The position numbers and the translations under genes were made by a program. The notes beneath the pieces were generated by a model that made no database searches, had not been told where the DNA came from, and saw only the letters and a list, made by a program, of their open reading frames with translations. This document shows positions 1 to 14,505 of a stretch of 14,505 bases of DNA, piece after piece. How positions within the stretch are numbered: position 1 is the first letter of the stretch; the number at the start of each line of letters is the position of its first letter. The stretch comes from Candidatus Vampirococcus lugosii (lineage in GTDB: Bacteria > Patescibacteriota > Gracilibacteria > Absconditabacterales > Absconditicoccaceae): contig NZ_JAEDAM010000021.1 of assembly GCF_018420025.1 (NCBI RefSeq), forward strand, positions 1 through 14,505, read 5' to 3'.

Positions 1-172
1 AATATCTAATTTAGTTTTAGATAATGTAAATATTCAACTACTCAATCTTTTTTATAATTTCAAGAGATTTTTTATATACTATAAAAATTTTTTATATATA
101 AATTTCTTTGCAAAATTCAAATAAATAATTAAAATTCAATATTGAAATTTAATCAAAAATAAAAATAAAAAA

Positions 173-493
173 ATGAGTGAAGAGAATAAAATCTATATAA
201 TAATTTGAAAAGAAAGTCCTACAAACAAAATATTGTCAAAATTATTAAAAGAACATATTAAAGAAACTGAATGAATTAAAGATAAAAATATATTACCAGC
301 TTTAGAAAATAGTCTTACAGAAAAAACATCATTAAAAAAATTTATAAAAGACATATTAGAAATTACTAACAATAAGAAAATTGAGTTTATTTCTTTAAGT
401 TTTAGGAATACAAAAGATGAAGATATATCATATATTAATTCACTTCAAAAAGAATTTTCAATTAAATCATTTGAAGAATATTTACTTTCTTAA
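173..493 (+). CDS. hypothetical small protein (106 aa, table 25)
   Basis: ATG at 173 and TAA at 491-493. The frame is open only if two in-frame TGA are sense (MSEENKIYIIIGKESPTNK...SFEEYLLS). No motif recognised. Its 3' end overlaps the convergent gene 482..1231 by 12 nt. Confidence 0.4.
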
Positions 494-1231
494 TAAATTA
501 AAAAAGTAATTTATTAAACTATCAACTTTATTTTTATTAAAATTATAAAATATCTGATTTTGTGGATTAATTTCATTTATTATTTTAATATATTTATTTT
601 TTTCTATTGGAGATAATATAGAATAAATTCAATCATCATCTTTACCTAAGTCTCATATACTAAATAAATCATATCAACCTTTTTTAAAGTTAAATCAATT
701 TATATATAAAATTCAACTAGAAAAATTCTTATATAATATAACATAAGAATAATATCACTCATCTTCAATATTTAATCTTTTTTCAGCTCAAGGAGATAAT
801 AATAAAGATTCATAATCTTTAATAACTTTAAGATCTGAATATTTTCTTTTATTTTCATCATAATATTTATAACAATAGATAATATTACTTGCTTCAAATT
901 TTCAATCATTAACAATGATAGGATATCCTTCTTTAGACTGCAATTTAATTAAAGGTCTAAACTCTTCAAAAGCTAATTTATTTTGAATTTCACTATTTTT
1001 ATTAAATTTATAAGCCAAATATCAAACAACAATAGCTACTATAAAACTTCAAACTCATCATAACACTTGAAACCATTCAGCAGAATTTTCACTAAAAAAT
1101 AAAAAATTAAAAGATAATCAAAAAGAATTAATTACACTTTCAAAGTATAATCAAAAAAGGAAAAAGAAAATTGAAAATAAAACTACTATTATTTTATAGT
1201 TTGAAGTGATTTTTTTAAATATTTTTATCAT
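482..1231 (-). CDS. hypothetical membrane protein (249 aa), two N-terminal TM helices plus an unknown soluble domain
   Basis: ATG at 1231 (minus), 18 nt after the hsdS stop; TAA at 484-482. Hand translation is uninterrupted with TGA=Gly (MIKIFKKITSNYKIIVVLFSIFFFLFGLYF...VLGGVGSFIVAIVVGYLAYKF...NYFFNLLRK). Two hydrophobic segments are followed by a roughly 170-aa Tyr/Asp/Lys-rich domain I do not recognise. Confidence 0.5.
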
Positions 1232-1249
1232 AACAATAAACTTAATCAG

Positions 1250-2656
1250 TTAAAATTCTTTATTTTCCAAAAATTCAATTGCTTTTGTTTCATCTTGTTC
1301 TATAAAGATTTCTACAGATTTTTTTGCTTTTTCCAATAGATTTTTTGAATTTTCCAATGCTTTGTGTGAATCTTGTACTAATTGAGCTATTTTTGATTGA
1401 ACTTTTTCATCAAGTTTTGGTAGTATAAATTTAGCAAAATCATTTTTATTACTTGCTTCTAAGATCATTCCTCTTGCAGTTCTTTTCAATAGTTCTCTAT
1501 AAATCCAAGATTTCATTAAAATTAAATTTGTTTCAGCATTAAAAAATTTTGGTTTCAATATAAAAAATCAAGTAGAAGCAACAAAATCTTCTTTATTATG
1601 ATCAACAATAGCTACTTTCTCAGCAGAACCACGAATAGAAGAAACAAGAACATCATTTTTTTCTATTTTCATTTGTGCCCTACTTGGTAAGTCTTGAGAT
1701 AATATTTTATTATTTGAATTTACAGTTCCCAAACTTGCATTTATATCTGCAAGTTCTATATATTGAAAAGATTTGTTTTCCTCTTTTTTGATTCTTTTAT
1801 TTGAAATTGTTATAAGATTATCTAAATGATCCCATCATCAATGATAGTTTTTAATTTTTTCTATAATTTCATCATATTTTGGTTGGAAAAATTCAGCATC
1901 TATTCTTCAGAAAATATCTATTTCTTTACTATCTTTGATAGAAATATTGTTTTCTGTAGGTTGATAATCTTCTAATCAAATTTCTTTTAGCAATACTTGT
2001 TCAGCTTGTGAATATAGTTTTTTTGATTCTTCTCTTTGTTGGTAAGATTCTTGAACAAGTTCAGCTATTTTTTGTTGGAAAGAATTTGAAGGAATAGGAA
2101 AAGGTAGGTTATCTAATATATAAGTTGGAAATCTTGGGTGCTCATTTCATTCTTGACTATAAAATAATATTTTTTGAACTTCTTCAGTAGATAGAAATAT
2201 ATATAAAAATTCAGGCAATAGTCAATTATTAGTTTTTAATGGTAGCAATTCAGTTGTTGTATATACTAAATCATCAAAAATAATTCAAACTTGTTGTAAA
2301 TACGGTCTCAAACGAGAAATAACAACTATTTTATTTCATACAATATTTTTTGTGCTTTTTATATTAGAAACTTTAGATTCTATTATCTCATTTATTTGAA
2401 AATTTCATATATTTTCTAGTTCTAATAATTTTATTACTTCATTTTGATTTTTATAATTTTTGGGACTAAAAGTTTTTTTATCAAAATAAAATAATTCTCA
2501 TAATTTACAATATTTTTTAGATTTTAAATAAGATATAGAATTTATTTTTTTAGGATGATAAACTTCTGCTCATATTCTATAAGAATATTCCAAATCTTTC
2601 ACTTCCACAATTGAAACATCAAGATTTTTTTGTTCTATTATTTGTTGGTAGGTCAT
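1250..2656 (-). CDS. hsdS: type I restriction-modification specificity subunit HsdS (468 aa)
   Basis: Continuous frame with table 25 from ATG 2656 to TAA 1252-1250. It has two target-recognition halves, each opening with the family motif (RIGAEVYHPK and RIDAEFFQPKY). There are two conserved coiled-coil spacers (FQQKIAELVQESYQQREESKKLYSQAEQVLL and VQSKIAQLVQDSHKALENSKNLLEKAKKSV), which is the classic internal duplication of HsdS. Confidence 0.9.
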
Positions 2657-4095
2657 TGGTTTTTAAGACTATTTAAAATTTTTATCATTTCTTGTATAGA
2701 ATTATCTAATTCTTCCTCTGAATAATCATCATTATGATTATTCTCTGGATGATGAATAGAATGTCTTATATATTCTTGAAGTGAAACATCAATTTCTTTT
2801 CATTTAATTCAATTTTTATCTTTAACCCATTTTTTTGTTTTATCTATTTCATTTAATTCAATTTTATTTTTTATTTCTAAATATCAATAAAGCTCATTAT
2901 GAAATTCAACTGTAGGTAAATTATAAGCATAATAATTTATTTCTCACCAAGAAGGACTATATTTTCAAAATAATCAAAAGTTTTCAGCTGTATTTTGTAT
3001 TTTTATAGTTTCATCTTCTTTAGTAAAAATATTTACTTTTTTTAATTTTCATCAAGTTTCTTTAAAAATATATGGAGAATGTGTTGTTAAAAAAATTTGT
3101 TGTGTTTCTGATAACTTATTTAATGCTTTAATAAGTTTTATTTGAGCTTTAGGATGTAAACAAATTTCAGGCTCATCAATAAAAAAATAAAATGGTTTTT
3201 TATTTTTTTCTTCTGATTCTGGCAACATATTTATATATACTTGTAATAAAGTTAATGCTATAGCTCTTTGCATTCAACTTCATTTCTCATCTAAAAAAGT
3301 TTTTGTTCCATCATCAACTTCAATTTTTGTATTTTTAAAATATGAACTAACATCTAAATTTTCAAAGTGAAAGTTTATTTTTGCATCTCAAAATTGTTCT
3401 TTAAAAGTTGTTTCTACATCTTGTCAAATTTCATTCAATTTTGATTTTAAACTATTTTCTCAATCATTAAAAACTTCATTATATTTTTTCTCAAAATCAA
3501 TATATTCTTGACTATCCTTAAATCATTCAGATATTTTTGAAATCAATTTTCAAACTATAGTTGTACTTCAAAATTTAGTTATTTCTTCTGGATTTGTATC
3601 TGCCCAAATAAAATCAATGTCAAAATATTGTTTAAAAGATTTATCAAATCAAGTAGGATTTTCATATTGCAAAGATTCAAAATTATAAACTCATAATTTT
3701 TTAATATTCATATCAACAGACTTTTTTCATCATTGATCAATTACTTTTTTCTCTGAACTTCTTCATAATTTAATTAATTCCATTCAATCATCTAATTTTT
3801 GAATATATTTTTCATATTTTGGTCTTAAATTATCTAATGAATTTCAAAGCATTTCAATTTTAACTATTACAGGATTATTTTTATTGTTTTTATTTTTTAA
3901 ATCATCTTCATTACTTCATTTTGGTAGTCAAGAAAATAAAAAATTAACAGCTTCAAAAACTGTTGATTTTCAAGTATTGTTTTCTCATATAAAAAAGTTT
4001 AATCAATTATTTTTTTGATTTGGAAAATTAAAATCTATTTCAGTTTTTCATCAAAATCATTTAAAATTTTCAATTATGATCTTTTTTAAAAACAT
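2638..4095 (-). CDS. AAA/ABC-type (SMC/OLD/AAA_15-21-like) ATPase with a C-terminal R-x4-H (HEPN-like) domain, embedded in the type I R-M operon (485 aa)
   Basis: ATG at 4095 and TAA at 2640-2638. N-terminus is FLKKIIIENFKGFGGKTEIDF. Walker A is GENNTGKST, with both glycines encoded by TGA. Signature-like GSGMQRAIAL, Walker B FYFFIDEPEICLHP and H-loop LTTHSP are present. The C-terminal ~140 aa (KYSPSWGEINYYAYNLPTVEFHNELYGYLE...LQEYIRHSIHHPENNH...) contains RHSIHH, which fits R-[NHD]-x3-H. The gene overlaps the hsdS start by 19 nt. Confidence 0.85.
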
Positions 4096-4120
4096 TTTCA
4101 ATCAATTTTAAAAAACTAAA

Positions 4121-6052
4121 CTACTCACTCAAAAAATTAAAATCTTGTTCTTTTCACCACTGCACAAAAGCATCTGCTATATCCATCAAATCAGTTTGTA
4201 ATACTCTATTTTCATTTTCATCTTCTTTATATACATAATCACCACTATTATCTTTGAAAGGTAATTTGGAAGTAGCAAAAAATATTGGATAATTTTTAAC
4301 TTTTGGATTTCATCACTCATCAAGTTCATCTTCTTTCCATTTTTGTAAAAACAATACTGATGTTTTTGTTCAAGTATGAGGTTTAAAAGCATTTTGATCC
4401 AATCCTACTACTGACAAAATCCTTGCTTTTTTCATGATAAAATCACGAATATGTTCTTCTGATGTATTATTAAAAACTCATTGAGGCAAAACTATTGCAA
4501 GTCTTCAACCAGGTTTTACTACAGATAAATTTCTTTCTATAAATAAAATATGTCTTGAAGTTTGACTTACAAGCTTTCATTTTTGATTTTTACCTAAATC
4601 ATAATCAGATAACAATCTTTTGTCTGCTACTTTACCAGCAAAGGGAGGGTTTGCCAATAGCACATCAAATTTTAGTTCTTTTAAACTTTCTTTGTTTTCT
4701 TTATCTTTTTTAATATCTGAAAATTCTTGTATAAGATGAGATCTTTCTAATTCATATTTTATAGGTGATTTATGCCAATTGTTTGTATCCAAAGAATTAA
4801 GTTTGAAAATATGACTTTTACCATCTCAAGCTATAAGCATAATAGCCCTTGAAATCTTGGAAGTTCTTTCATCAAAATCTATACCAAATAAATATTTTTT
4901 TGCATATCTATCCCTAAAATCTGAATCAGAAGCTTTTGGAAAATGTTTTTCTCTTACATATTTCATAGTATGCACCAAAAATCAAGCACTACCACAAGCT
5001 GTATCTATTACATAATCTTTTTTTCAAGGATTCAACATTTTTACACACATATCAATAACTACTCTTGGTGTAAAATATTGTCCTTTCTCTCATTTACTAG
5101 ATTTTTGTATAAGATACTCAAATGCATCATCTATCACTCTTAAATCACTTCCAAACAATGATATATTTTCAAGTAATCAAACACATAAAGACAAATGTTC
5201 TGGTGATAATTTAATTTTATCTGTTGTTTCAAAAATATCATATTGCCATTCTTCTTTTGCTGATTCAAAAAGTTCATCTATTGCATCTTTAGTTTTTTGT
5301 AGATTTTTACCATATTTTCTAAAAAATAGTTCTTCATTTTGTCTATCTTTTGCCTCTGTTTCATCAAATAATTTTGCAAATATTATTTTAAAAATCTCTT
5401 CAAATGCATCAAAACCAGTATGAGCCAAAACTAATTCTTCCAAGTCTAAAATTACTTTTGAAAGATCTTGTTCTTCAAGGTCTGATAAAGTTTTCTTTTT
5501 CTTAAAAAGATCTTCTACTTCTTCACCATATTTTGGAATGTCTCAAAGTGTATCAAAGTCAGCTGGATAAGGTCTATATAAGATAGTATGTACTTGTCAG
5601 TTCAAAGCAACTCATATAGGAGCTCATTTTGCATTTAGATAACTTTTCAATTGTTCAAGATCATTTTTTTGTCATGGAGCTTTTAGTTCTATTACAATTT
5701 TTTCTGTAGTATTATCATCACTATATACTACAACATCTACTCTTTTATGATCATATTTTTCTCTACCAAATTGGACATCAACTTCAGTATCTATAAGTTT
5801 TTTTGGATATTTATATTTTTTGATCAATTCATCTATATATAATTGTTTTACTATCTCTTCTGGTGCAGATTTTCAAGTTGTTTCATTATATATAAGTCTT
5901 TCTTCTTCTCTTCTTCATAATGATTTAATATAATATTTACCTTCTTCTCAATCTTTTGTATAAAATTTTAGATTTTCAAGATTATCAAATAATAATAATG
6001 ATTTTTCAGGGTTTGGAAAAATTTTTTTTAAAACTTCTTTAGTATACACCAT
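4121..6052 (-). CDS. hsdM: type I R-M N6-adenine DNA methyltransferase HsdM with an N-terminal HSDR_N-like (PD-(D/E)xK-type) domain (643 aa)
   Basis: ATG at 6052 and TAG at 4123-4121. SAM motif I is VIDTACGSAGFLVH and catalytic motif IV is LLANPPFAG. PGGRLAIVLPQGVFNN and AFKPHTGTKTSVLFLQKW are typical HsdM. The N-terminal ~160 aa carry RVDVVVYSDDNTTEKIVIELKAPGQKNDLEQLKSYLNAKGAPIGVALNGQ (D...ExK). Confidence 0.92.
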
Positions 6053-6121
6053 AATATAAATATTTTGTAAATAAATACTACTTTTTATATACTCATTTTA
6101 AACTTTTTTTCAACCAAAATA

Positions 6122-6874
6122 TTAAAATATATAAGGAAATAAAGCAGGAGTTTTTGATTTATATTTTTCATATTCACTATTTCATTTATATCTATTGTCA
6201 GTCATAGCAACTCAAGATACAAAAATTAATAGTAAAAAAATTACTAAAAATCATATTAATGAAAAAATATTAATTTGTAATCAAATAAAACTTATTCAAA
6301 ACCAAAAACAAATTTCTCAAAAATAATTTGGATATCTATGAAATTTTCTCAATCATTTTTTTAATATTTCTCATTTTTTTCTAATTTTCAAAAACTTAAA
6401 TAATTGATAATCTGCTATACTTTCATATATTAATCAAAATAAAGATATAATAGTTCATATAATTAAAAATATATTAATTCAAAAATCTTTTTCTCAATAA
6501 AATATTATAAATAAAGGTATAGCTATGATAAACATAATTATCATTTGTAAAATATATATTTGAAAAAAACTTTGAGTATAGAAATATTTCCATTCATTTC
6601 TCCATTCTTTATATCTACTATCTTCTCAAGGTTTTTTTAATTTTCTATAAAATATATAACTTGACAATCTAAGTCCCCAAGCAAGAATTAAAAATAATGT
6701 TGTTAGTTGATAAATATATTGATCTGATTGAAAAAATAACATTATTGCTATGATTCAAAATCATAATCACCAAAATATATCAACTATAGAATTATCTTTG
6801 ATATATATTGATATAAAAAATAAAACTAAATAACATAAAAAAATAACAAGTAAAATACTAATAATATCTATCAT
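6122..6874 (-). CDS. DUF1295 / steroid-5-alpha-reductase-like polytopic membrane protein (250 aa)
   Basis: ATG at 6874 and TAA at 6124-6122. Family motifs are visible after recoding: IVDIFWGLGFG, AWGLRLSSYIFYRKLKKPGEDSRYKEWR, ADYQLFKF, GLRKFHRYPNYFGEICFWFG and SGVAMTDNRY...KTPALFPYIF. Confidence 0.8.
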
Positions 6875-6922
6875 AAAAATTTTAATTTAAATAAATAAAA
6901 TTTAATTAATATCAAAAAATAA

Positions 6923-7210
6923 CTAAATTTCAATAGCATTAATTTTATTTAAAATAAATTCTTTATCTTGTGTTCAACATAACACAAAAACTTCTTGTGC
7001 TGTTCATCATTTTTTCATAATAAATTTCATTCCACTTTCAGTTTTGTAAGAAAATGAGATCTTTTTATGACTAGATCATTTTTGTTTTCTATAAATTCTT
7101 CAAGGTATAATTCTTTTAACTTGAGGAATTTTTTCTATACTTTCCAAAACTTTTTTGAAATCACTCAATATATGATGTTCTTTTTTTATTTTTCAAGATT
7201 GATATTTCAT
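6923..7210 (-). CDS. hypothetical small protein (95 aa), translationally coupled to the upstream CPBP protease
   Basis: ATG at 7210 lies 1 nt after the CPBP stop (TAA-T-ATG); TAG at 6925-6923. Sequence is MKYQSGKIKKEHHILSDFKKVLESIEKIPQVKRIIPGRIYRKQKGSSHKKISFSYKTESGMKFIMKKGGTAQEVFVLCGTQDKEFILNKINAIEI. The IIPGRI...GG.AQEVFV pattern is vaguely reminiscent of a small DUF family (possibly DUF2103), but I cannot confirm this. Confidence 0.5.
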
Positions 7211-7211
7211 A

Positions 7212-8009
7212 TTAAAAAAATATTATTCAATATAATTTTTCTCATTCTTTTATTTCATTTAATATTTTATCTGAAAAAAATATTATAGTAAAAGCAATTC
7301 AATTTACCAAAAAATGAAATGCAAAAGTATATATCAAAGATTTTGTTTTATTATATATATAAGCAAGTATTAATGCCAAAATAAATAAATTTCAAAATAC
7401 TGAAAATTCAAAATGGATGAATGTAAAAATAAATGCAGAAAAAAATATTCAAATATATTTTCAATATCATTCAGTCAACATTTTTTGTATATATCATCTA
7501 TAAACTATTTCCTCAATAAGAGGCACCAATATAGCTATCATCAAAAACATAATTAAATGTTCATACCAATTATTTATAGAGATTTGTCATATAAAATTAG
7601 CTACATTTTGTTCTCCAAAAAAACCTGGAAAATTAATTCAAATTAAGTTTATTATAAATAATAAAAATCATGATATTAAAATATATAAAAAATATGCACC
7701 TATAGTATATTTAAATAAATTAATAAATCATAACCAAACAAATTGTTTTTTATAAAAATTTATTATATAATTAAAAAATTTTTCTTTAATATTATTTTCA
7801 CTTACTTTCATAGCAATAAATAAAAATATTCATACAAATATTTGTTGAAATAAAAATGCAATAATAAAAATACTAATAAAATTTAAATTTAAACTTAAAA
7901 AAAATGATTTTATTAATTCTACATAATATGTAGGTAAATATTTCAAAAATAAGTTTAGCATAAGATAAAGTCAAACAAATGTAGACACTCACAATAATTG
8001 TTTTTTCAT
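7212..8009 (-). CDS. CPBP family intramembrane glutamic endopeptidase (CAAX protease / Abi domain, 265 aa)
   Basis: ATG at 8009 and TAA at 7214-7212. The protein is polytopic and hydrophobic, with the three CPBP motifs in order: EEIVYRGY (EExxxR), FSAFIFTFIHF (FxxxH) and FHFLVNG (HxxxN). Confidence 0.8.
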
Positions 8010-8045
8010 TTTTAACAAAAAACTAAATATATAAAAAAATAAAAA

Positions 8046-8795
8046 TTACTTTATAATATCTTTTTGAACTACAAAAACACTATTTCTACTATTTTTAATA
8101 GTGTCATTTTCTCATTTATTATTTATATAAAAAATATCTCTAATACAAAATCAACTTGATTTCAATAAATTTATTTTTTCCATATGAGAAAATATATGAT
8201 AATATCTATATAATGTTTTTTCTCAATTTTTCCAAGGTATATAAATATCTTTCATAGAAAAATATCAAGAACTTAATATAGATTTCAATCTAGAAAAAAA
8301 AATATTTTTATTATACTTTTTTCTAAACCAATCTGACATAGTCCAGTTTATAGAAATCAATTTTCAATTATATTTCAATATTTTGTAAATATACTTCAAA
8401 ATTAATTTTCTTTCAGATTTGTTTGGAATATGTTGAAAACTTGCTATCATAAAAACAAAATCATATTCTTCTTGACTTTCATTTTGTAAAAAATCTAACA
8501 TATCACTTGTATAAAAATTATAATTTGGATATTTATTTTTTGATATATTTATCAAATTTTCAGATATATCAACTCAAGTATAATCTATTTTTTCAAAATC
8601 AGATAATTCTTCTTGTAAATAATTTAAAATCCTAGCATTACCACATCCCAAATCTAATATTTTAATATTTTCTTTTTTATATTTTTTAATTTTTTCCAAA
8701 ATTATTTTAAATTCTGGCCAATATTTTTGTCTAGTTTGATTTCGTTTTTCACTTTGAGAATTATAAAAATCTTTAATTTGTTGTTTTGAATTCAT
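8046..8795 (-). CDS. class I SAM-dependent methyltransferase (249 aa), Trm9/ALKBH8-like C-terminal pattern
   Basis: ATG at 8795 and TAA at 8048-8046. Motif I is ILDLGCGNARIL. The post-I motif YTGVDISENLI has its Gly encoded by TGA. FVFMIASFQHIP is present. The C-terminal IYIPWKNGEKTLYRYYHIFSHMEKINLLKSSGF resembles the RYYHxF...GF pattern I associate with Trm9-type tRNA methyltransferases. The subfamily call is tentative. Confidence 0.8.
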
Positions 8796-8840
8796 TTATA
8801 TATTAATTAATATTTTTATATAAATAATATTATTAAAAAT

Positions 8841-8887
8841 AATATTTCATCACTCATTACAAGTGGATAAATATTTCATCAGTCATT
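8841..8887. repeat. two 18-nt direct repeats (AATATTTCATCA[C/G]TCATT) with 29-nt period, in the PBP-methyltransferase intergenic region
   Basis: Copies at 8841-8858 and 8870-8887 differ at one position. They lie between the PBP stop (8917) and the methyltransferase start (8795), so on the minus strand they are upstream of the methyltransferase. Confidence 0.5.
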
Positions 8888-8916
8888 CTGAGCGAAGGCG
8901 AGGAATCTATTAATAT

Positions 8917-11484
8917 TTATTCTTTGATACCTGAATATTCTATTAAAAATTTGGATATATCTCTATTTATAAATCAAGCTGTACTTCCTCATCGTTCTGA
9001 TTGTCTAGGACGACGAACTTGAGTAATTATAACATATCTTGGATCTTTGGCAGTAGTAACTCATGCAAAACCTCATATAGTCCATCATGCACCAGATTGA
9101 TAGGATCATTGAAAAGCAATTTGAGAAGTTCATGATTTTCATCATACACTATAAAAAGGAATTCAAACCATACTTCATAAATGTTGTTCATCTTCCATAT
9201 CTAATATATCTCACATAGCTTTTAACATTTTTTCAGAAGTTTCTTGAGAGAATATTTTATGCCCCAATTTAGGTTCAAAATAAGTATATTTATCTGTTTC
9301 TCTATTATATATTTTATCTAATATTGTAGGTCTAACACTATATCATCAATTAATCATTGTAGAATATGCACTAGCTAATTGAATTGGAGTTATTAATAAT
9401 CATTGTCCAAAACTATTATTGAAGAATCTAGCCATAGAAAAATCTTCTAAACCAGTAACTCTACCAGATTCTTCACCTGCAAGTTCAATTCAAGTAAGTT
9501 TACCAAATCAGAGTTTATCCAAATAAGAATAAAAAACATACCTTGTAGTTTTTTGAACTATTCTTACCATTCACACATTACAAGACCAATCAAGTGCATT
9601 AAGAAAAGTTTTATATCATTCACATTGAGATTGAACATTACTTATAGTATAAGGTCAAATTTCAACACTTCATTCATCTTCATAACGATCATCAAGCTCA
9701 ATTTCATCAGAATCAAGTCAAATTGCTGTAGTAACAGATTTAAAAGTACTACCAGGTTCAGAAGGATAAGCTATATTTCTATCTATAAATACTTGTGGTC
9801 ATAATTTATTTGTAAAAACATATTTTTTTAAAGTTAAATCTTTCCTTTCAGAATAAGTTGTCATTCTCAAATCTCAATCATCATTTAACAAAACAGGAAT
9901 ATCAATATATTGATCATCATCTACAATATCTCTTTGATCATAAGATAATGGCTCAATGTTGTAATAATCAGAATAAGAATTTGGATCATAATTTGGATAA
10001 TTTACAGATGCTTTTATTTTACCAGTATGAGGATCCATAACCAAAACTGATATAGTATCAGGAACTAATACATTATAATATGTTTTTACAATTCTTTCTA
10101 CATTTTCTTGTATAGTAGGATCTATTGTAAGATATACATCAGAACCATTAATAGGATTTTTTATTTCAAAATTATTTGAACCAACAATTCATATCCATGG
10201 TACAGATACTCAAACCATTTGTCAATCTATTCATTTAAGGATATCATCAAAATATTCTTCTACTCAATAAAATCATTTTCATTCATTATTTATATATCAC
10301 AAAATATGAGACATAAAAGATCAATAAGGATAATATCTTTTTTGACTTTTTTCATAACCTAATCAATGCAATAAAGGTACAGAATCTATTGTTTCAGTAA
10401 AATATTTTTCTTTAAGATCATTTATTTTTTGAATAATTTGACCTGACACATTATCTGCTATTCTTACATATCTTATTTCTCTTTCTTGTAAGCTTTTGAC
10501 AATTACTTCTTGAGTATAATTATATCAATGTTTATTAAATAAATCTAAAATTTCCCTACTAGTACTATTAATATTATTTACTTTAGTAGGAATGAAATAA
10601 AGATAATTTCAAACTATAGAAATATAATCTTTATCCAAATTTTCAAGTTTATTAAGAAAATTATTATTATCAAAATATCAAAAATAATTTGCTTTTCTAA
10701 TTCAAGGTTTGGTAATATCAGATAATTTTTCTGATATAAGCTCATATGCATCATCTTGAGAAAAATCATCAATAGCTTCTTGAGTTTTTAAATCAAAAGA
10801 TTGTTGATCAAGAAAAATTTCTTGAGAATCTCAAGTTAAGAAAAAAGTTTTTTCTTCTTGTGGCAATATTTTAACTCAAGAAAAATCTTCTATATTTCTT
10901 ATACATGTAATTTCATCTGGAACTTCAAGTCCAAATTGTTCACAAAAATGTTCATATAAAACTGGTGTTATTTTTTCTACAAATCATTCTCTATCATTAA
11001 TAAATCATGGATCAGCAAATATAGTATATATATTAATATTTTCAGTAAGTTTTCTTTCATTTCAAGAGTTATCAGTTACAAAAATATTTCATCTTTTAGC
11101 AGTCAAAGTAGTATTACTAGCATGTTGAGTAAATAATTTTTTTTGATATTCTTTTGCATTTACAACTTGTAAATAAAATAATCTACCAAAAATAATCATA
11201 AATAAAAAAACAAAAAATCAAATTATTTTTATTTCTTTACTTGAATTTTGTAAAATATTTACATATTTATTTGATTTAGTTCTTTTTCAAAATCTTGATC
11301 TAATTTTTTCATAATAAAATGTTAATTTTCTATATATTTTATCTTTCAAAATATTATCTTTTTTTCTTTTATTATTTTTTTTTCAAAATTTATAAACAAA
11401 ATTTTTGTAATACAAAAATACATTTTTTAATATTTTATTTTTCAAAATATTATCTTTTTTTCTTCTATTATTTTTTCTTTTCAT
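8917..11484 (-). CDS. class B penicillin-binding protein (PBP2/FtsI-type peptidoglycan D,D-transpeptidase), up to 855 aa; start uncertain
   Basis: TAA at 8919-8917. The TM anchor GFFVFLFMIIFGRLFYLQVV is followed by AKRGNIFVTDNSGN, RYYPYG and HILGY. Transpeptidase motifs are EPGSTFK (SxxK), DWSCN (SxN), FGQGLLITPIQLASAYS and GGKSGTSQ (KSG). The first in-frame ATG is at 11484, giving an 86-aa Lys-rich region before the TM helix. An alternative TTG lies at 11349. There is also a ~35-aa acidic insertion between NYPNYDPN and EPGSTFK relative to typical PBP2. Confidence 0.88.
11334..11380. repeat. direct repeat copy A (~47 nt) in the PBP 5' region
   Basis: TATATTTTATCTTTCAAAATATTATCTTTTTTTCTTTTATTATTTTTT matches 11430-11476 with 2 mismatches by my manual alignment. 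The offset is exactly 96 nt. Confidence 0.7.
11430..11476. repeat. direct repeat copy B (~47 nt) in the PBP 5' region
   Basis: Partner of 11334-11380. On the minus strand both copies read in the PBP frame as (K/R)RKKDNILK(D/N)KI. Confidence 0.7.
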
Positions 11485-11509
11485 ATACAAAAAAACTTAT
11501 TTATTTAAA

Positions 11510-13768
11510 TTATTTATTTGATTTTGGCAATGGTTTAGCATTTTTACAATCTGGATATTTATTACAAGCAAGAAAAGGTCATCTTTTACTTTTTTTTACC
11601 ATCATTTTTCATTCTCAACATTTATCACAAGTTTCACCTCAATATTTTTCTTCAAGTTTTTCTATTTTTTCATCAGGTATTTTTCATATCCATTTAACTT
11701 CTGGGTATTCACTACTTGCCAAAAAAGGTCAAAATCTTCAAATTTTTACAACTATTGTTCATCATTCAGGACAAGGTTTTCATTCAAATTTTTCTTTTAA
11801 TGAATCAAGTTTTGATTTTTCTTCTTCAGATTGTCTTATATATTTACAATCTGGATAATTACTACATCAAATAAATTTTCACATTTTTGAAAATTTATAT
11901 ACTAATTCATTTCAACATTCAGGGCATTTTTCTCATACAATCATTTGTTCAGCTTCAGCATTATCAGCATTTTTTAATTCTTTTTCAAATTTTGTCCAAA
12001 AATCTTTCATCAATTTTTTCCAATCTTTTTCTCAATGAGAAACTTTATCCAAATCTTTTTCCATTTTGGCAGTAAATTTGTAGTCCATAAGATTTCAAAA
12101 TTGTTTTTCCAAAAATTTATTTACAACAAAAGCTATCTCAGTAGGAAATAATTTTTTTGCTTCATCTTTATCAACATATCATCTATCAATAATAGTTCAT
12201 ATTGTTGGTGCATAAGTTGATGGTCTACCAATTCATAATTCTTCCATTTTTTTTACTAAAGAACTTTCTGTATATCTACTTGGTGGTTTAGTAAATTGTT
12301 GGTAAGCAGATATTAATTTTGAATTTAATGTTTTTCATTTATTCAAAGATGGCAAAATTTCTTCATTACTAGGATAAGATCATAAAAAATCTTTATATAT
12401 TCTATAAAATCAATCAAAATAAATTGTTTGTCATTTAGATAACCAAATTTGATCTTTATCTTTTTCAGGACTAAACTCATAAGTAATATTTTCAGCAATA
12501 GCTTCACTCATTTGACTTGCTATAGTTCTAATCCATATCAATTGATAAAGCATTTTTTCTTTACTAGCAAGAGATGTTTCATCAGGTGATTTTTTTATAT
12601 TTGTAGGTCTTATAGCTTCATGAGCTTCTTGAGCAGAAGATCATTTAGTTTTGAATTGTCTAGTTTTTACATAATTTTCTCAATATTTATCTTGTATAAA
12701 TCATTTACAAGCTCAAATTGCTTGTTTGGAAAGATTGCAACTATCAGTTCTCATATATGTAATATATCAATTTTCATATAATTTTTGTGCTACCATCATA
12801 ACTTGTTTTACTCACCATCAAAACTTATTTGAAGCTTGTTGTTGTAATGTAGAAGTTATAAATGGAGCTTGAGGATTCTTTTTTGATTTAGTTTTTTTAA
12901 TATTTATTAATTCAAAATCTATTCAAGATTTATAATTTAATACTTTATTTCATGTTTTTTTATCTTTACTTTCTTTAGGTTTTTTTAAATCTAAATTAGT
13001 TAAAGATTTATCAACATCTTTTTCATTTAATAATTTTATTTTTTTATTTTTAATTTTATCTAATTGAGCTATTAATCATTCTTGTCATTCAAAATCCGTA
13101 ACTATTTTCCAAGATTCTTCAGGTTCAAAAGATTTTATTTCATTTTCTTTTTCTATTACAAGTTTTACTGCAACGGATTGAACTCTTCATGCAGAAAGTC
13201 ATCTTTTTACTTTTTTCCACAATACTGGTGAGACTTTGAAACCAACTAATCTATCCAAAACTCTTCTTGCTTGTTGACTATTTACAAGATCTATATCAAC
13301 TTGTCTAGGATTGTCTATAGCATTTTGTAATGCATCTTTTGTAATTTCATGAAAAACAATTCTAGGAGTATCTTTCAATTTTAATTTAAGTGCCGTCAAT
13401 AAATGCCAAGCTATAGCTTCTCATTCACGATCTTCATCAGTTGCAAGCCATACTTTTTCATAATTTTTTGCTAATTTTTTTAGTTCTGTTACTGTTTTTT
13501 TCTTATCAGGCATAACTTCATAAGTAGTTTCAAAATTATTTTCTATATCAATACCAATTCATTTTTTTGGTAAATCTATAATATGTCCCATACTAGCAAC
13601 TATTTCATAATCATTTCACAAAAATTTTTTAATTGTTTTAGATTTTGCTGGAGACTCTACAATAACTAAATTTTTACCATAACTATTTGCAATTATTTTT
13701 TTCTTTGTTGTTTTGGTACTAGTTTTCTTTGTAGTTGTTTTATTATTTTTTTTGGTAGATTTTGGCAT
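11510..13768 (-). CDS. topA: DNA topoisomerase I (type IA), 752 aa
   Basis: ATG at 13768 and TAA at 11512-11510. Toprim region is [34 protein letters not shown] and ATDEDREGEAIAWH. WKKVKRGLSAGRVQSVAV has both Gly encoded by TGA. The active-site Tyr region is [19 protein letters not shown] is present. There are three C-terminal zinc-ribbon repeats (CPECG...CSNYPDC; a degenerate CPEGG...SSEYPEV; CDKCG...CNKYPDC). The N-terminal ~25 aa form a Lys/Thr-rich tail. Confidence 0.96.
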
Positions 13769-13808
13769 AAATAAAAATATTTATTTTAAATAAATTATAT
13801 AATAAATT

Positions 13809-13836
13809 GTTTATATTAGTTTATTTATTTTTTTCA
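13809..13836 (-). promoter_or_regulatory. candidate sigma70-like promoter for topA
   Basis: The minus strand reads TTGAAA (13836-13831), a 16-nt spacer, then TATAAA (13814-13809), about 40 nt upstream of the topA ATG. Such hexamers arise easily by chance in DNA this AT-rich. Confidence 0.25.
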
Positions 13837-13928
13837 AGAAAAAATTAAAGTAAAATATATAAAATATAAAATTATACTTAAAATTTTAATCTTCTACACT
13901 AGAAAAATAAAAAACAACAAAAGACAAC

Positions 13929-13956
13929 TTGAAAAAGATAAAAAAAATAATATAAT
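13929..13956 (+). promoter_or_regulatory. candidate sigma70-like promoter driving the mini-ORF/repeat/pilin region
   Basis: TTGAAA (13929-13934), a 16-nt spacer, then a perfect TATAAT (13951-13956), about 40 nt upstream of the ATGs at 13997 and 14005. AT-richness lowers the specificity of this call. Confidence 0.3.
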
Positions 13957-13996
13957 TTAAATGTTGGAAATTAATTAATATTTAATATTGAAAATT

Positions 13997-14125
13997 ATGA
14001 AAAAATGAGTAAATTTAGTTGTGAGTTGTGAGTTGTGAGTTGTGAGTTGTGAGTTGTGAGTTGTGAGTTGTAAATTAGATAGTTTATGTATAAATAATTT
14101 TTGAGTTAATAAAAAAACATGATAG
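13997..14125 (+). CDS. candidate leader mini-ORF (42 aa) spanning the heptanucleotide repeat; an alternative overlapping 22-aa ORF lies at 14005..14073
   Basis: ATG 13997 gives MKKGVNLVVSCELGVVSCELGVVSCKLDSLCINNFGVNKKTG, stopping at TAG 14123-14125 inside the left arm of the downstream hairpin. ATG 14005 gives MSKFSCELGVVSCELGVVSCEL, stopping at TAA 14071-14073. Both are open only because TGA is sense. I have no evidence of translation. Confidence 0.2.
14017..14071. repeat. heptanucleotide microsatellite (AGTTGTG)x7 plus a partial eighth unit
   Basis: Seven perfect tandem copies occupy 14017-14065 and a 6/7 copy occupies 14066-14071. The tract is conspicuously G-rich relative to its AT-rich surroundings. 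The unit length is not a multiple of 3. Confidence 0.97.
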
Positions 14126-14148
14126 ATTTTTTTCTATTGTGTTTTTTT
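14111..14148 (+). terminator. intrinsic-terminator-like hairpin (A-tract/stem/loop/stem/T-tract)
   Basis: AAAAAAACATGATAGA (14111-14126) pairs with TCTATTGTGTTTTTTT (14133-14148). That is 16 pairs including 2 G-U wobbles, with a 6-nt T loop. The core CATGATAGA/TCTATTGTG is followed by T7. It lies between the mini-ORFs and the pilin ATG. Confidence 0.5.
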
Positions 14149-14215
14149 ATTGATTTAAGAAAAAATCAATACAATATATTTTATATATATTAAATACAAT
14201 AAAAAATGAGAAACA

Positions 14216-14505
14216 ATAAATGATTTACATTAGTAGAAGTTGTGGTAACAGTGTGAATTATCGCAATATTGGCGGTAGTAGGATGAATTAGTATTAGTAT
14301 TTGGGTAAGTAAAGCAAGGGATGCACAAGTGGTAAACAATGTGCAGACTGTAGCATGAGGACTTGAAACTTATCATATTAAGAAATTTGAATTTCCTGAA
14401 CCAGATGGGAATGTTTTGACATGAAATTTGGAACAGTGAATGATATGATCTTGAGTGATGAAGAAATTATCAAGTTTTGTAAATGTAAAAAATTTATCAA
14501 ATTCT
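14216..14505 (+). CDS. type IV pilin / pseudopilin-like protein with a prepilin N-terminal cleavage-methylation motif (3' partial, runs off the window)
   Basis: ATG at 14216. MRNNKGFTLVEVVVTVGIIAILAVVGGISISIW is the canonical (K/R)GFTL(V/I)E signal followed by a hydrophobic helix. The invariant -1 Gly is encoded by TGA. The frame stays open to the window end. Confidence 0.8.

Follow-up and report, generated by a model that had tools for sequence, protein, structure and literature searches.

A conserved R-x4-H tail in place of the Toprim nuclease of an OLD-type ABC ATPase: a possible abortive-infection effector in Candidatus Vampirococcus lugosii

Does the ATPase encoded among restriction-modification (R-M) genes of Candidatus Vampirococcus lugosii end in a ribonuclease, and if so, what would hold that activity in check? 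The locus lies in a 14,505-nucleotide (nt) stretch of DNA, which was analysed at its full length and is called the window here (contig NZ_JAEDAM010000021.1, positions 1 to 14,505 of the forward strand). The protein consists of an ABC ATPase head and a tail carrying the hexapeptide RHSIHH, and a sequence-only reading of the window had suggested that this tail is possibly a HEPN nuclease held latent by a type I R-M complex, in the manner of PrrC and RloC. Our analysis leads us to lean, without great confidence, towards a self-contained, ATP-gated abortive-infection effector in which an OLD/GajA-type ABC ATPase would act as sensor and switch and a minimal HEPN-like domain would replace the Toprim nuclease. 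The autonomous sensor-plus-effector part of this reading is suggested by the single mobile gene, the intact ATPase and the catalytic-grade conservation of a tail that stands at the position of the OLD nuclease. The metal-independent, HEPN-like RNase part is suggested by motif chemistry and topology. The gene and its tail are arranged as follows (aa, amino acids; AF2, AlphaFold2).

2638..4095, minus strand: ATPase-tail gene, complete (ATG at 4095, stop TAA at 2638-2640, 485 aa, code 25)
2656..2973, minus strand: tail domain of about 110 aa, residues ~375-480 (AF2 models; no library match)
2740..2766, minus strand: candidate active-site motif RHSIHHPEN, residues 444-452 (family consensus [YF]-I-R-[NH]-x-[IVM]-H-H-P-E-N)
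2878..2907, minus strand: helix-2 motif EFHNELYGYL, residues 397-406, with H399, N400 and E401 (from conservation)

RHSIHH occupies residues 444-449 (window 2749-2766, minus strand; window position 3063 corresponds to residue 345), exactly where it had been placed, and is the sole R-x4-H string of a protein that holds just four Arg and eight His. It fits R-[N/H/D]-x3-H as had been stated, and R-[N/H]-x-[IVM]-H-H-P-E-N is present in 266 of the 269 relatives collected; the Arg is followed by N or H and in rare cases by D or S. Conservation of the Arg and the His across homologues had been named as a check to make, and R444 and H449 are invariant both in 113 tails (a set de-replicated at 80% identity) and in 136 full-length sequences. 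Within the 113 tails, whose mean column identity is 30%, the only invariant residues are R444, H448 and H449, and these are joined by E451 and N452 in 37 homologues from many phyla at 41-70% identity. The tail holds six of the 14 invariant columns of the 136 full-length homologues (E385, E401, R444, H448, H449 and S466). In the helix-2 motif, E401 is invariant and H399, N400, L402, Y403 and G404 are conserved in at least 90% of the same 136 sequences. Two divergent members, P0248 and a protein of the Lactobacillus plasmid pLH1 (30% identity), read R-N-x-x-D-H, and E401 is replaced by Leu in the pLH1 homologue. Because these two members carry Asp at that position, H448 is dispensable, and the irreducible core of the motif, as judged from the alignments, is R-N-x3-H. 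An exhaustive HMMER search of 1.84 billion representatives found the tail domain in 455 proteins (cluster representatives). In nearly all of them it forms the C-terminal part of an ABC ATPase; some of these proteins are longer, and their heads are more divergent.

The tail-only AF2 model, based on the alignment of 113 sequences, has a predicted local distance difference test score (pLDDT) of 94.8 and a predicted template modelling score (pTM) of 0.87. Helix 1 spans residues 383-391 and helix 2 residues 396-409; a short helix follows at 411-415, then a beta-hairpin at 421-437, between helices 2 and 3, then helix 3 at 439-448 and helix 4 at 460-479. The full-length model repeats these tail elements. 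Helix 3 carries R444 to H448 and ends at the motif, and a loop with H449-P-E-N leads from it into helix 4. All of the roughly 140 aa after the H-loop had been assigned to this tail; a separate domain of about 110 aa does stand there, and the other 30 aa or so belong to the ATPase, whose fold includes two terminal beta-strands at residues 354-368. A His-Me finger formed by the hairpin and helix 3 was considered and rejected, the hairpin having no conserved catalytic residue.

In the published definition of HEPN domains, Rx4-6H ends helix 3, inserts are permitted between helices 2 and 3, and a conserved acidic residue is expected in helix 2 (Anantharaman et al. 2013, PMC3710099). The tail family has Rx4-6H with a polar N/H/D after the Arg. 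In the model, the order of the elements and the position of the motif agree with the definition, an agreement in secondary-structure order only, and E401, which lies in the predicted helix 2 but is Leu in the pLH1 homologue, may stand for the acidic residue. The validated RNase site of the IRE1 KEN/HEPN domain reads MRNKKHHYRELP in PDB sequences, and the R-N-x-x-H-H pattern is as in the tail family.

Comparisons at the level of fold and profile did not confirm a HEPN assignment. Foldseek of the tail model against PDB and BFVD returned no HEPN domain and no other structural neighbour, so that no four-helix up-down bundle superimposable on solved HEPN domains was recognised. None of Pfam, NCBIfam and PADLOC has a model that matches the tail, and a comparison of the 113 tails with Pfam at E<=10 yielded only scattered noise, with no recurring HEPN or other family. 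The tail profile found nothing meaningful among PDB sequences, and hhalign of the tail against PrrC/RloC-type tails was not significant. Because there is no fold- or profile-level link to a known HEPN domain, we infer the label from motif plus topology and write HEPN-like. The proposed HEPN nuclease tail is upheld in motif, helix order and motif position and finds no counterpart in Foldseek or profile matches; the structure prediction that had been advised gave four helices with a hairpin insert, at the confidence quoted above, and no HEPN neighbour.

The remainder of the protein is the head, in which the following elements were located.

2992..4095, minus strand: OLD/GajA-type ABC ATPase head, residues 1 to ~368 (Pfam, PADLOC, AF2 model)
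3961..3987, minus strand: Walker A GENNTGKST, residues 37-45 (N39 and K43 invariant, G37 and G42 in at least 90% of 136 homologues)
3265..3282, minus strand: ABC signature motif GSGMQR, residues 272-277 (G272 and G274 in at least 90% of 136 homologues)
3166..3192, minus strand: Walker B / D-loop FYFFIDEPE, residues 302-310 (D307, E308 and P309 invariant)
3073..3090, minus strand: H-loop LTTHSP, residues 336-341 (S340 invariant, H339 in at least 90%)

The ATPase motif set is intact, and Q276 and R277 of the signature motif are invariant in the 37-sequence set. The head had been assigned to the AAA_15/OLD clade rather than to PrrC, and the profiles agree: Pfam AAA_15 matches residues 1-343 (1.5e-32), PADLOC Old matches at 1.3e-48, and AAA_13, the PrrC/RloC family, gives no Pfam match in the protein at E<=1. 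The PADLOC Old and GajA profiles reach residues 362-373. Of the 578 positions of the Old profile, only 3-345 are aligned, and the protein thus lacks anything that corresponds to the Toprim half of Old; neither Toprim nor DUF4435 is matched by Pfam in the protein. The PADLOC PtuA profile PDLC00295, which reaches residue 444, was discarded as alignment drift, because no PADLOC model is matched when the tail is taken by itself. In structure, the full-length AF2 model (pLDDT 91.4, pTM 0.87) is most like GajA, the Thermus OLD nuclease and the retron-Eco8 effector; the heads of Rad50 and SMC and PtuA come next.

Among 185,579 species-representative genomes, 536 encode the tail. The lineages include many from the Candidate Phyla Radiation (CPR), Gammaproteobacteria, Bacteroidota, Chloroflexota, Spirochaetota and others, and the idea of a fusion peculiar to a recoded CPR lineage has to be given up with this spread over many phyla. 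Members occur in E. coli, Klebsiella, Haemophilus and Lactobacillus, and 10 of the 5,426 complete E. coli genomes carry the family. It was also found on 13 IMG/VR contigs and four plasmids. Among 50,697 sequenced phages there was no tail-family match, and phage carriage is therefore limited to occasional prophages and the IMG/VR contigs. Database names for members are generic ('AAA family ATPase', 'ATP-dependent nuclease').

Genomic neighbourhoods were counted over the 80 best loci. A type-I-like methylase lies within 7 kb in 20 of these, and in every case the R-M genes and the ATPase gene share a strand. The order hsdM-(hsdS)-X-hsdR, with the family member as X, is found in 11 loci, and it is seen as well in L003, where RhuM is nearby, and in L010. 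The other three quarters or so of the loci hold lone genes without an R-M partner. One lone copy lies between N and cI of a lambdoid prophage, another adjoins an integrase in E. coli H8, and another lies between transposases on plasmid pLH1; one copy adjoins a DpnI-like HNH gene, and further lone copies sit amid housekeeping genes. No second conserved gene recurs across the lone-gene settings. The genomic logic of PrrC is thus reproduced in the co-directional quarter of the loci and in the 11 with the M-(S)-X-R order, and not in the window itself, whose cassette is a type IIB-like RM-X-S. Latency imposed by the R-M complex does not hold as a general control, because most copies have no R-M neighbour; masking by R-M would be at most a lineage-specific layer of control.

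Other genes were noted at two of the R-M loci. In L003 (4977-6692), RhuM and a Y1 transposase stand between hsdM and hsdS. In L010 (1-730 and 7436-11482), there are AbiEii, a T1RH-like_C fragment, a second methylase and a HATPase_c_3 (paraMORC-like) gene. R-M operons that host family members appear to act as multi-tenant defence sites.

A working mechanism can be proposed for the effector reading. The ABC heads would keep the tails in an inactive arrangement. A phage cue, or the loss or inhibition of a neighbouring R-M complex if one is present, would shift the nucleotide or oligomeric state of the heads and bring two tails together. The paired R444/H449 motifs, helped by N/H445, H399 and E401, would then make up an RNase site that needs no metal. 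Its substrate would be host RNA, with tRNA the likeliest, and the cuts would stop translation and phage growth. We infer the RNase chemistry, the dimer-dependent activation, the RNA target and the trigger. In published precedents, an ABC ATPase head is the sensor and a nuclease the effector under its control; several of these nucleases are tRNases (PrrC, RloC, OLD, PARIS AriB), and P2 Old has been reported as an abortive tRNase. By analogy with PrrC, RloC, P2 Old and PARIS AriB, tRNA would be the most likely target; a nucleotide- or trigger-dependent rearrangement of the ABC dimer would, by analogy, be the most likely switch.

Three other accounts of the tail have to be weighed against such an effector. 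The R-x4-H string could have arisen by chance in a low-complexity, AT-rich CPR protein, with the tail a functionless, lineage-specific extension. Base composition lends this account something, the genome having a GC content of about 21%; in 20,000 composition-preserving shuffles of the protein, the probability of R-x4-H was 0.06, about 6% of shuffles giving one such string, and that of R-[NHD]-x3-H was 0.012. However, both the tail as a whole and its motif are conserved over a range that runs from CPR bacteria to Lactobacillus and Enterobacteriaceae, and the tail is modelled at a pLDDT of 94.8. As an argument for the motif, this conservation across the alignments is stronger than the shuffle statistics. 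A chance origin is scarcely credible, and on the comparative sequence data we regard it as refuted. The tail could also be a real but non-catalytic domain that serves dimerisation, docking or the binding of phosphate, nucleotide or nucleic acid. The protein would then be an ATP-dependent sensor or regulator, for example of an R-M enzyme, and killing activity would come from something else. Such a role is consistent with the lack of a structural or profile link to any nuclease fold, with the existence of known non-catalytic binders in the HEPN superfamily (PMC3710099), with the physical nesting of a quarter of the loci in R-M operons, where genes overlap, and with the tail being docked firmly on the head in the full-length model (pTM 0.87). 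However, the gene travels by itself, and in three of every four sampled loci there is neither an R-M partner nor any other conserved one; in prophages, plasmids and islands, a sensor that lacked an effector would serve no purpose. Moreover, the tail stands at the nuclease-domain position of OLD proteins, and strict R/H invariance with N/H at +1 is the catalytic HEPN pattern. We consider a non-catalytic tail unlikely.

The remaining account keeps the nuclease and changes its chemistry. In a novel metal-dependent nuclease, H399, E401, H448, H449 and E451 would bind a divalent cation, possibly with the hairpin and helix 3 as a beta-beta-alpha (His-Me-finger-like) unit, and the target would be DNA, as reported for OLD and GajA in vitro. 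The dense cluster of His, Glu and Asn in the tail, the beta-hairpin directly before the motif-bearing helix, the metal-dependent Toprim nucleases of the closest ATPase relatives and the NCBI name 'ATP-dependent nuclease' given to members can all be read in this way. However, no His, Asp or Asn that could act as general base or bind a metal is conserved in the hairpin, neither a His-Me fold nor another nuclease fold came up in Foldseek, and the NCBI name is generic and derived from the OLD-type head. In addition, divergent members replace two of the would-be ligands, H448 by Asp and E401 by Leu (the latter in pLH1), whereas R444, N445 and H449 persist. This pattern makes a metal-dependent enzyme rather improbable. 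The ATP-gated, HEPN-like RNase effector remains the reading that we prefer.

Such an effector would share much with PrrC and RloC. Both families have, in one polypeptide, an N-terminal ABC ATPase and a small, helical C-terminal domain with an essential Arg and His. Both lie within type I R-M operons, sometimes near RhuM, or alone in prophages; the prrC position is between hsdS and hsdR of such operons. The expected role, a second-line suicide response, would also be shared. However, the PrrC/RloC head is AAA_13, whereas the head of the tail family is AAA_15/OLD and has no long Rad50-like coiled coil. The tail motifs of the APECO1_4465 type read MRNILE...RYINRESHSD and those of the tail family FHNELYG...YIRNxIHHPEN. 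In a 21-sequence alignment of APECO1_4465-type tails, MRNILE and RYINRESHSD are invariant, and the PrrC/RloC-type motifs MRNILE and RYINRESH are not found in the tail family. With hhalign, the probability of a match to APECO1_4465-type tails was 1.1% from the single sequence and 0.15% (E=0.38) from the alignment. Membership in the APECO1_4465 ABC-HEPN family was rejected, that family having an AAA_13 head and a tail not detectably homologous to this one. By sequence comparison, the protein lies outside the PrrC/RloC family in head and tail alike.

A gene for an AAA_13 ATPase-HEPN protein of 738 aa lies in a P2-like prophage of E. coli APEC O1 (L006:36933-39149, minus strand; NC_008563 925932-928148). 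It occupies the old/tin hotspot of P2, with the replication endonuclease gene on one side and the portal gene on the other. The protein matches AAA_13 at 2e-111 over the whole profile, and the gene is very probably the prototype that the 2013 HEPN census names APECO1_4465. Some of its relatives read MRNILEH, an R-N-x3-H string in the upstream motif.

The nearest heads, by profile and by structure, are those of the OLD family (P2 Old, GajA of Gabija, the retron-Eco8 effector), which has the same single-gene, head-plus-effector design. The two differ in the effector: the Toprim nuclease of the OLD family is wholly absent from the tail family, and the motif-bearing tail of about 110 aa stands in its place. 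A similar pairing, of an AAA_15/AAA_21 ABC sensor with a nuclease effector, is found in PARIS (AriA+AriB), Septu (PtuA+PtuB) and HEC-01 to HEC-04, many of which sit inside mobile elements or within other defence systems. There the effector is a Toprim, HNH, NERD or PIN domain and usually a separate protein, whereas the effector proposed here is fused to its sensor. DARNA/PD-T7-3 was rejected as a relative, its HEPN domain being N-terminal and no ATPase being present.

The 2013 census lists two groups of ABC-ATPase-HEPN fusions, PrrC/RloC/APECO1_4465 and ERFG_01251 (PMC3710099). The latter combines an N-terminal ABC with a C-terminal HEPN distinct from that of PrrC/RloC; this HEPN is described as 'classical' and near the MNT-associated ones, with sporadic CRISPR-Cas linkage in Neisseria and Kingella (PMC3710099). 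Compared by description only, ERFG_01251 could be the same family as the tail family or a sister of it. Identity is less likely given that the tail matches HEPN neither in Pfam nor in structure, again with ERFG_01251 known by description, and its locus tag is absent among the cluster-member names of the tail family. For the KEN domain of IRE1 / RNase L, the IRE1 string M-R-N-K-K-H-H-Y-R-E-L-P can likewise be set beside I-R-N-x-I-H-H-P-E-N of the tail family. This likeness is one of motif only, as KEN is a eukaryotic, kinase-linked and circularly permuted HEPN. There is no significant profile or fold match between KEN and the tail; one of the 113 tails gives a weak Pfam match to Ribonuc_2-5A (E=0.01).

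An overview of mid-2026 gives PrrC and RloC as the only ABC-HEPN tRNases, and an ABC ATPase with this tail is not described in a survey of defence-embedded genes. It is possible, and we put this forward tentatively, that the family is an unrecognised and widespread single-gene antiphage system in which Toprim has been swapped for a minimal RNase domain of undescribed fold. This domain would either have converged on the R-N-x3-H active site of HEPN or have diverged from HEPN past recognition, and its PrrC-like nesting among R-M genes, as a reserve suicide nuclease, would have arisen independently.

In the window, the ATPase-tail gene is flanked by three co-directional genes.

4121..6052, minus strand: upstream gene, HSDR_N_2 + N6_Mtase nuclease-methyltransferase fusion, 643 aa (Pfam)
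1250..2656, minus strand: downstream gene, specificity (S) subunit, 468 aa (PDB sequence matches 5ybb_D and 3okg_A, 2e-10)
482..1231, minus strand: fourth co-directional open reading frame (ORF), about 250 aa, with a hydrophobic N-terminus, directly after the S gene

The stop codon of the upstream RM gene is separated from the ATPase start by 25 nt, and the start of the S gene overlaps the end of the ATPase gene by 19 nt. In the 4121-6052 product, the HSDR_N_2 nuclease domain is N-terminal and the methylase is of the N6 adenine type. The best PDB sequence match of this product is RM.BsaXI (type IIB) at 2e-29, and no HsdR-like ORF or HsdR motor is present in the window. Because the nuclease-methylase fusion is nearest to RM.BsaXI and HsdR is missing from the window, the host system is, by sequence, BsaXI/BcgI-like (type IIB-like) and not the type I operon that had been proposed; it consists of the RM fusion with its S subunit. 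The S subunit gives no Pfam Methylase_S match even at E<=5. The ORF at 482-1231 has no Pfam match; a 248-aa ORF is syntenic after S in the locus of the closest relative (L007:8881-9627), and the ORF might be a fourth component of the cassette. The RM-X-S cassette recurs in a Gracilibacteria metagenome-assembled genome (MAG), a Peribacteria MAG and two other contigs.

Translation of this operon depends on the genetic code. The window has a GC content of about 21%, and reading it with table 11 yields short ORFs only. With TGA as sense, long ORFs follow one another in the same direction along the minus strand, and the ATPase-tail frame is open over 2638-4107 (minus strand). Its 485-aa product is 100% identical to a database protein of Ca. 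Vampirococcus lugosii. UGA accounts for 32 of the 33 Gly codons of the gene, and these codons sit on columns that have Gly in 115 to 130 of 135 homologues. The recoded positions include G37 and G42 of Walker A, G272 and G274 of the signature motif, and G384 and G404 of the tail. Because nearly all of its Gly codons are UGA and fall on conserved Gly columns, the genetic code of the ATPase-tail gene is code 25 (UGA=Gly), as had been assumed at the outset. In the closest Gracilibacteria relatives (P0002, P0004, P0005 and P0007), the public translations show Trp at conserved Gly columns, as in 'WWEINYY' and 'ELYWYL'; these proteins were therefore translated with code 4 rather than 25.

The recoding also bears on the end of the protein.

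2641..2655, minus strand: C-terminal extension GPTNK, residues 481-485 (read-through of an ancestral TGA stop)

The ATG of the S gene overlaps the ATPase codons 'CAA TGA' as ATGA, and 105 of the 135 homologues have a gap at the position of GPTNK. In an ancestor with the standard code, the gene would have stopped at the TGA within this overlap; now that this codon is read as Gly, the five residues GPTNK are added. Codon reassignment seems to have left a slight trace here on an acquired operon.

Two observations were made elsewhere in the window. A 179-aa ORF at 11319-11858 (plus strand), probably spurious, is the longest open frame under table 11; opposite it, in antisense, lie the 3' part of topA and the 5' part of the PBP gene. 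The PBP2-like ORF at 8917-11496 has an N-terminus (~11289-11484, minus strand) that starts with two tandem Lys/Asn-rich segments of about 32 aa, which read KKNNRRKKDNILKNKI... and KKNNKRKKDNILKDKI... in translation.

If the tail is an RNase, the family would be a third independent lineage of ABC-ATPase-gated, RNA-targeting suicide effectors, beside PrrC/RloC and the Toprim tRNases of OLD and PARIS. It would also supply a new small catalytic domain that Pfam, NCBIfam and PADLOC do not see, so that defence-system finders would miss the family. The gene has entered type I operons repeatedly at the prrC position, and type IIB cassettes between RM and S, which offers new material on the old problem of what backs up R-M systems once phages have disabled them. 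The presence of members in E. coli, Klebsiella, Enterobacter and Citrobacter makes the hypothesis testable with standard phage panels. For the organism itself, the ATPase-tail gene is a clean illustration of UGA=Gly recoding, and the locus indicates that a predatory, genome-reduced Absconditabacterium keeps a horizontally acquired defence cassette.

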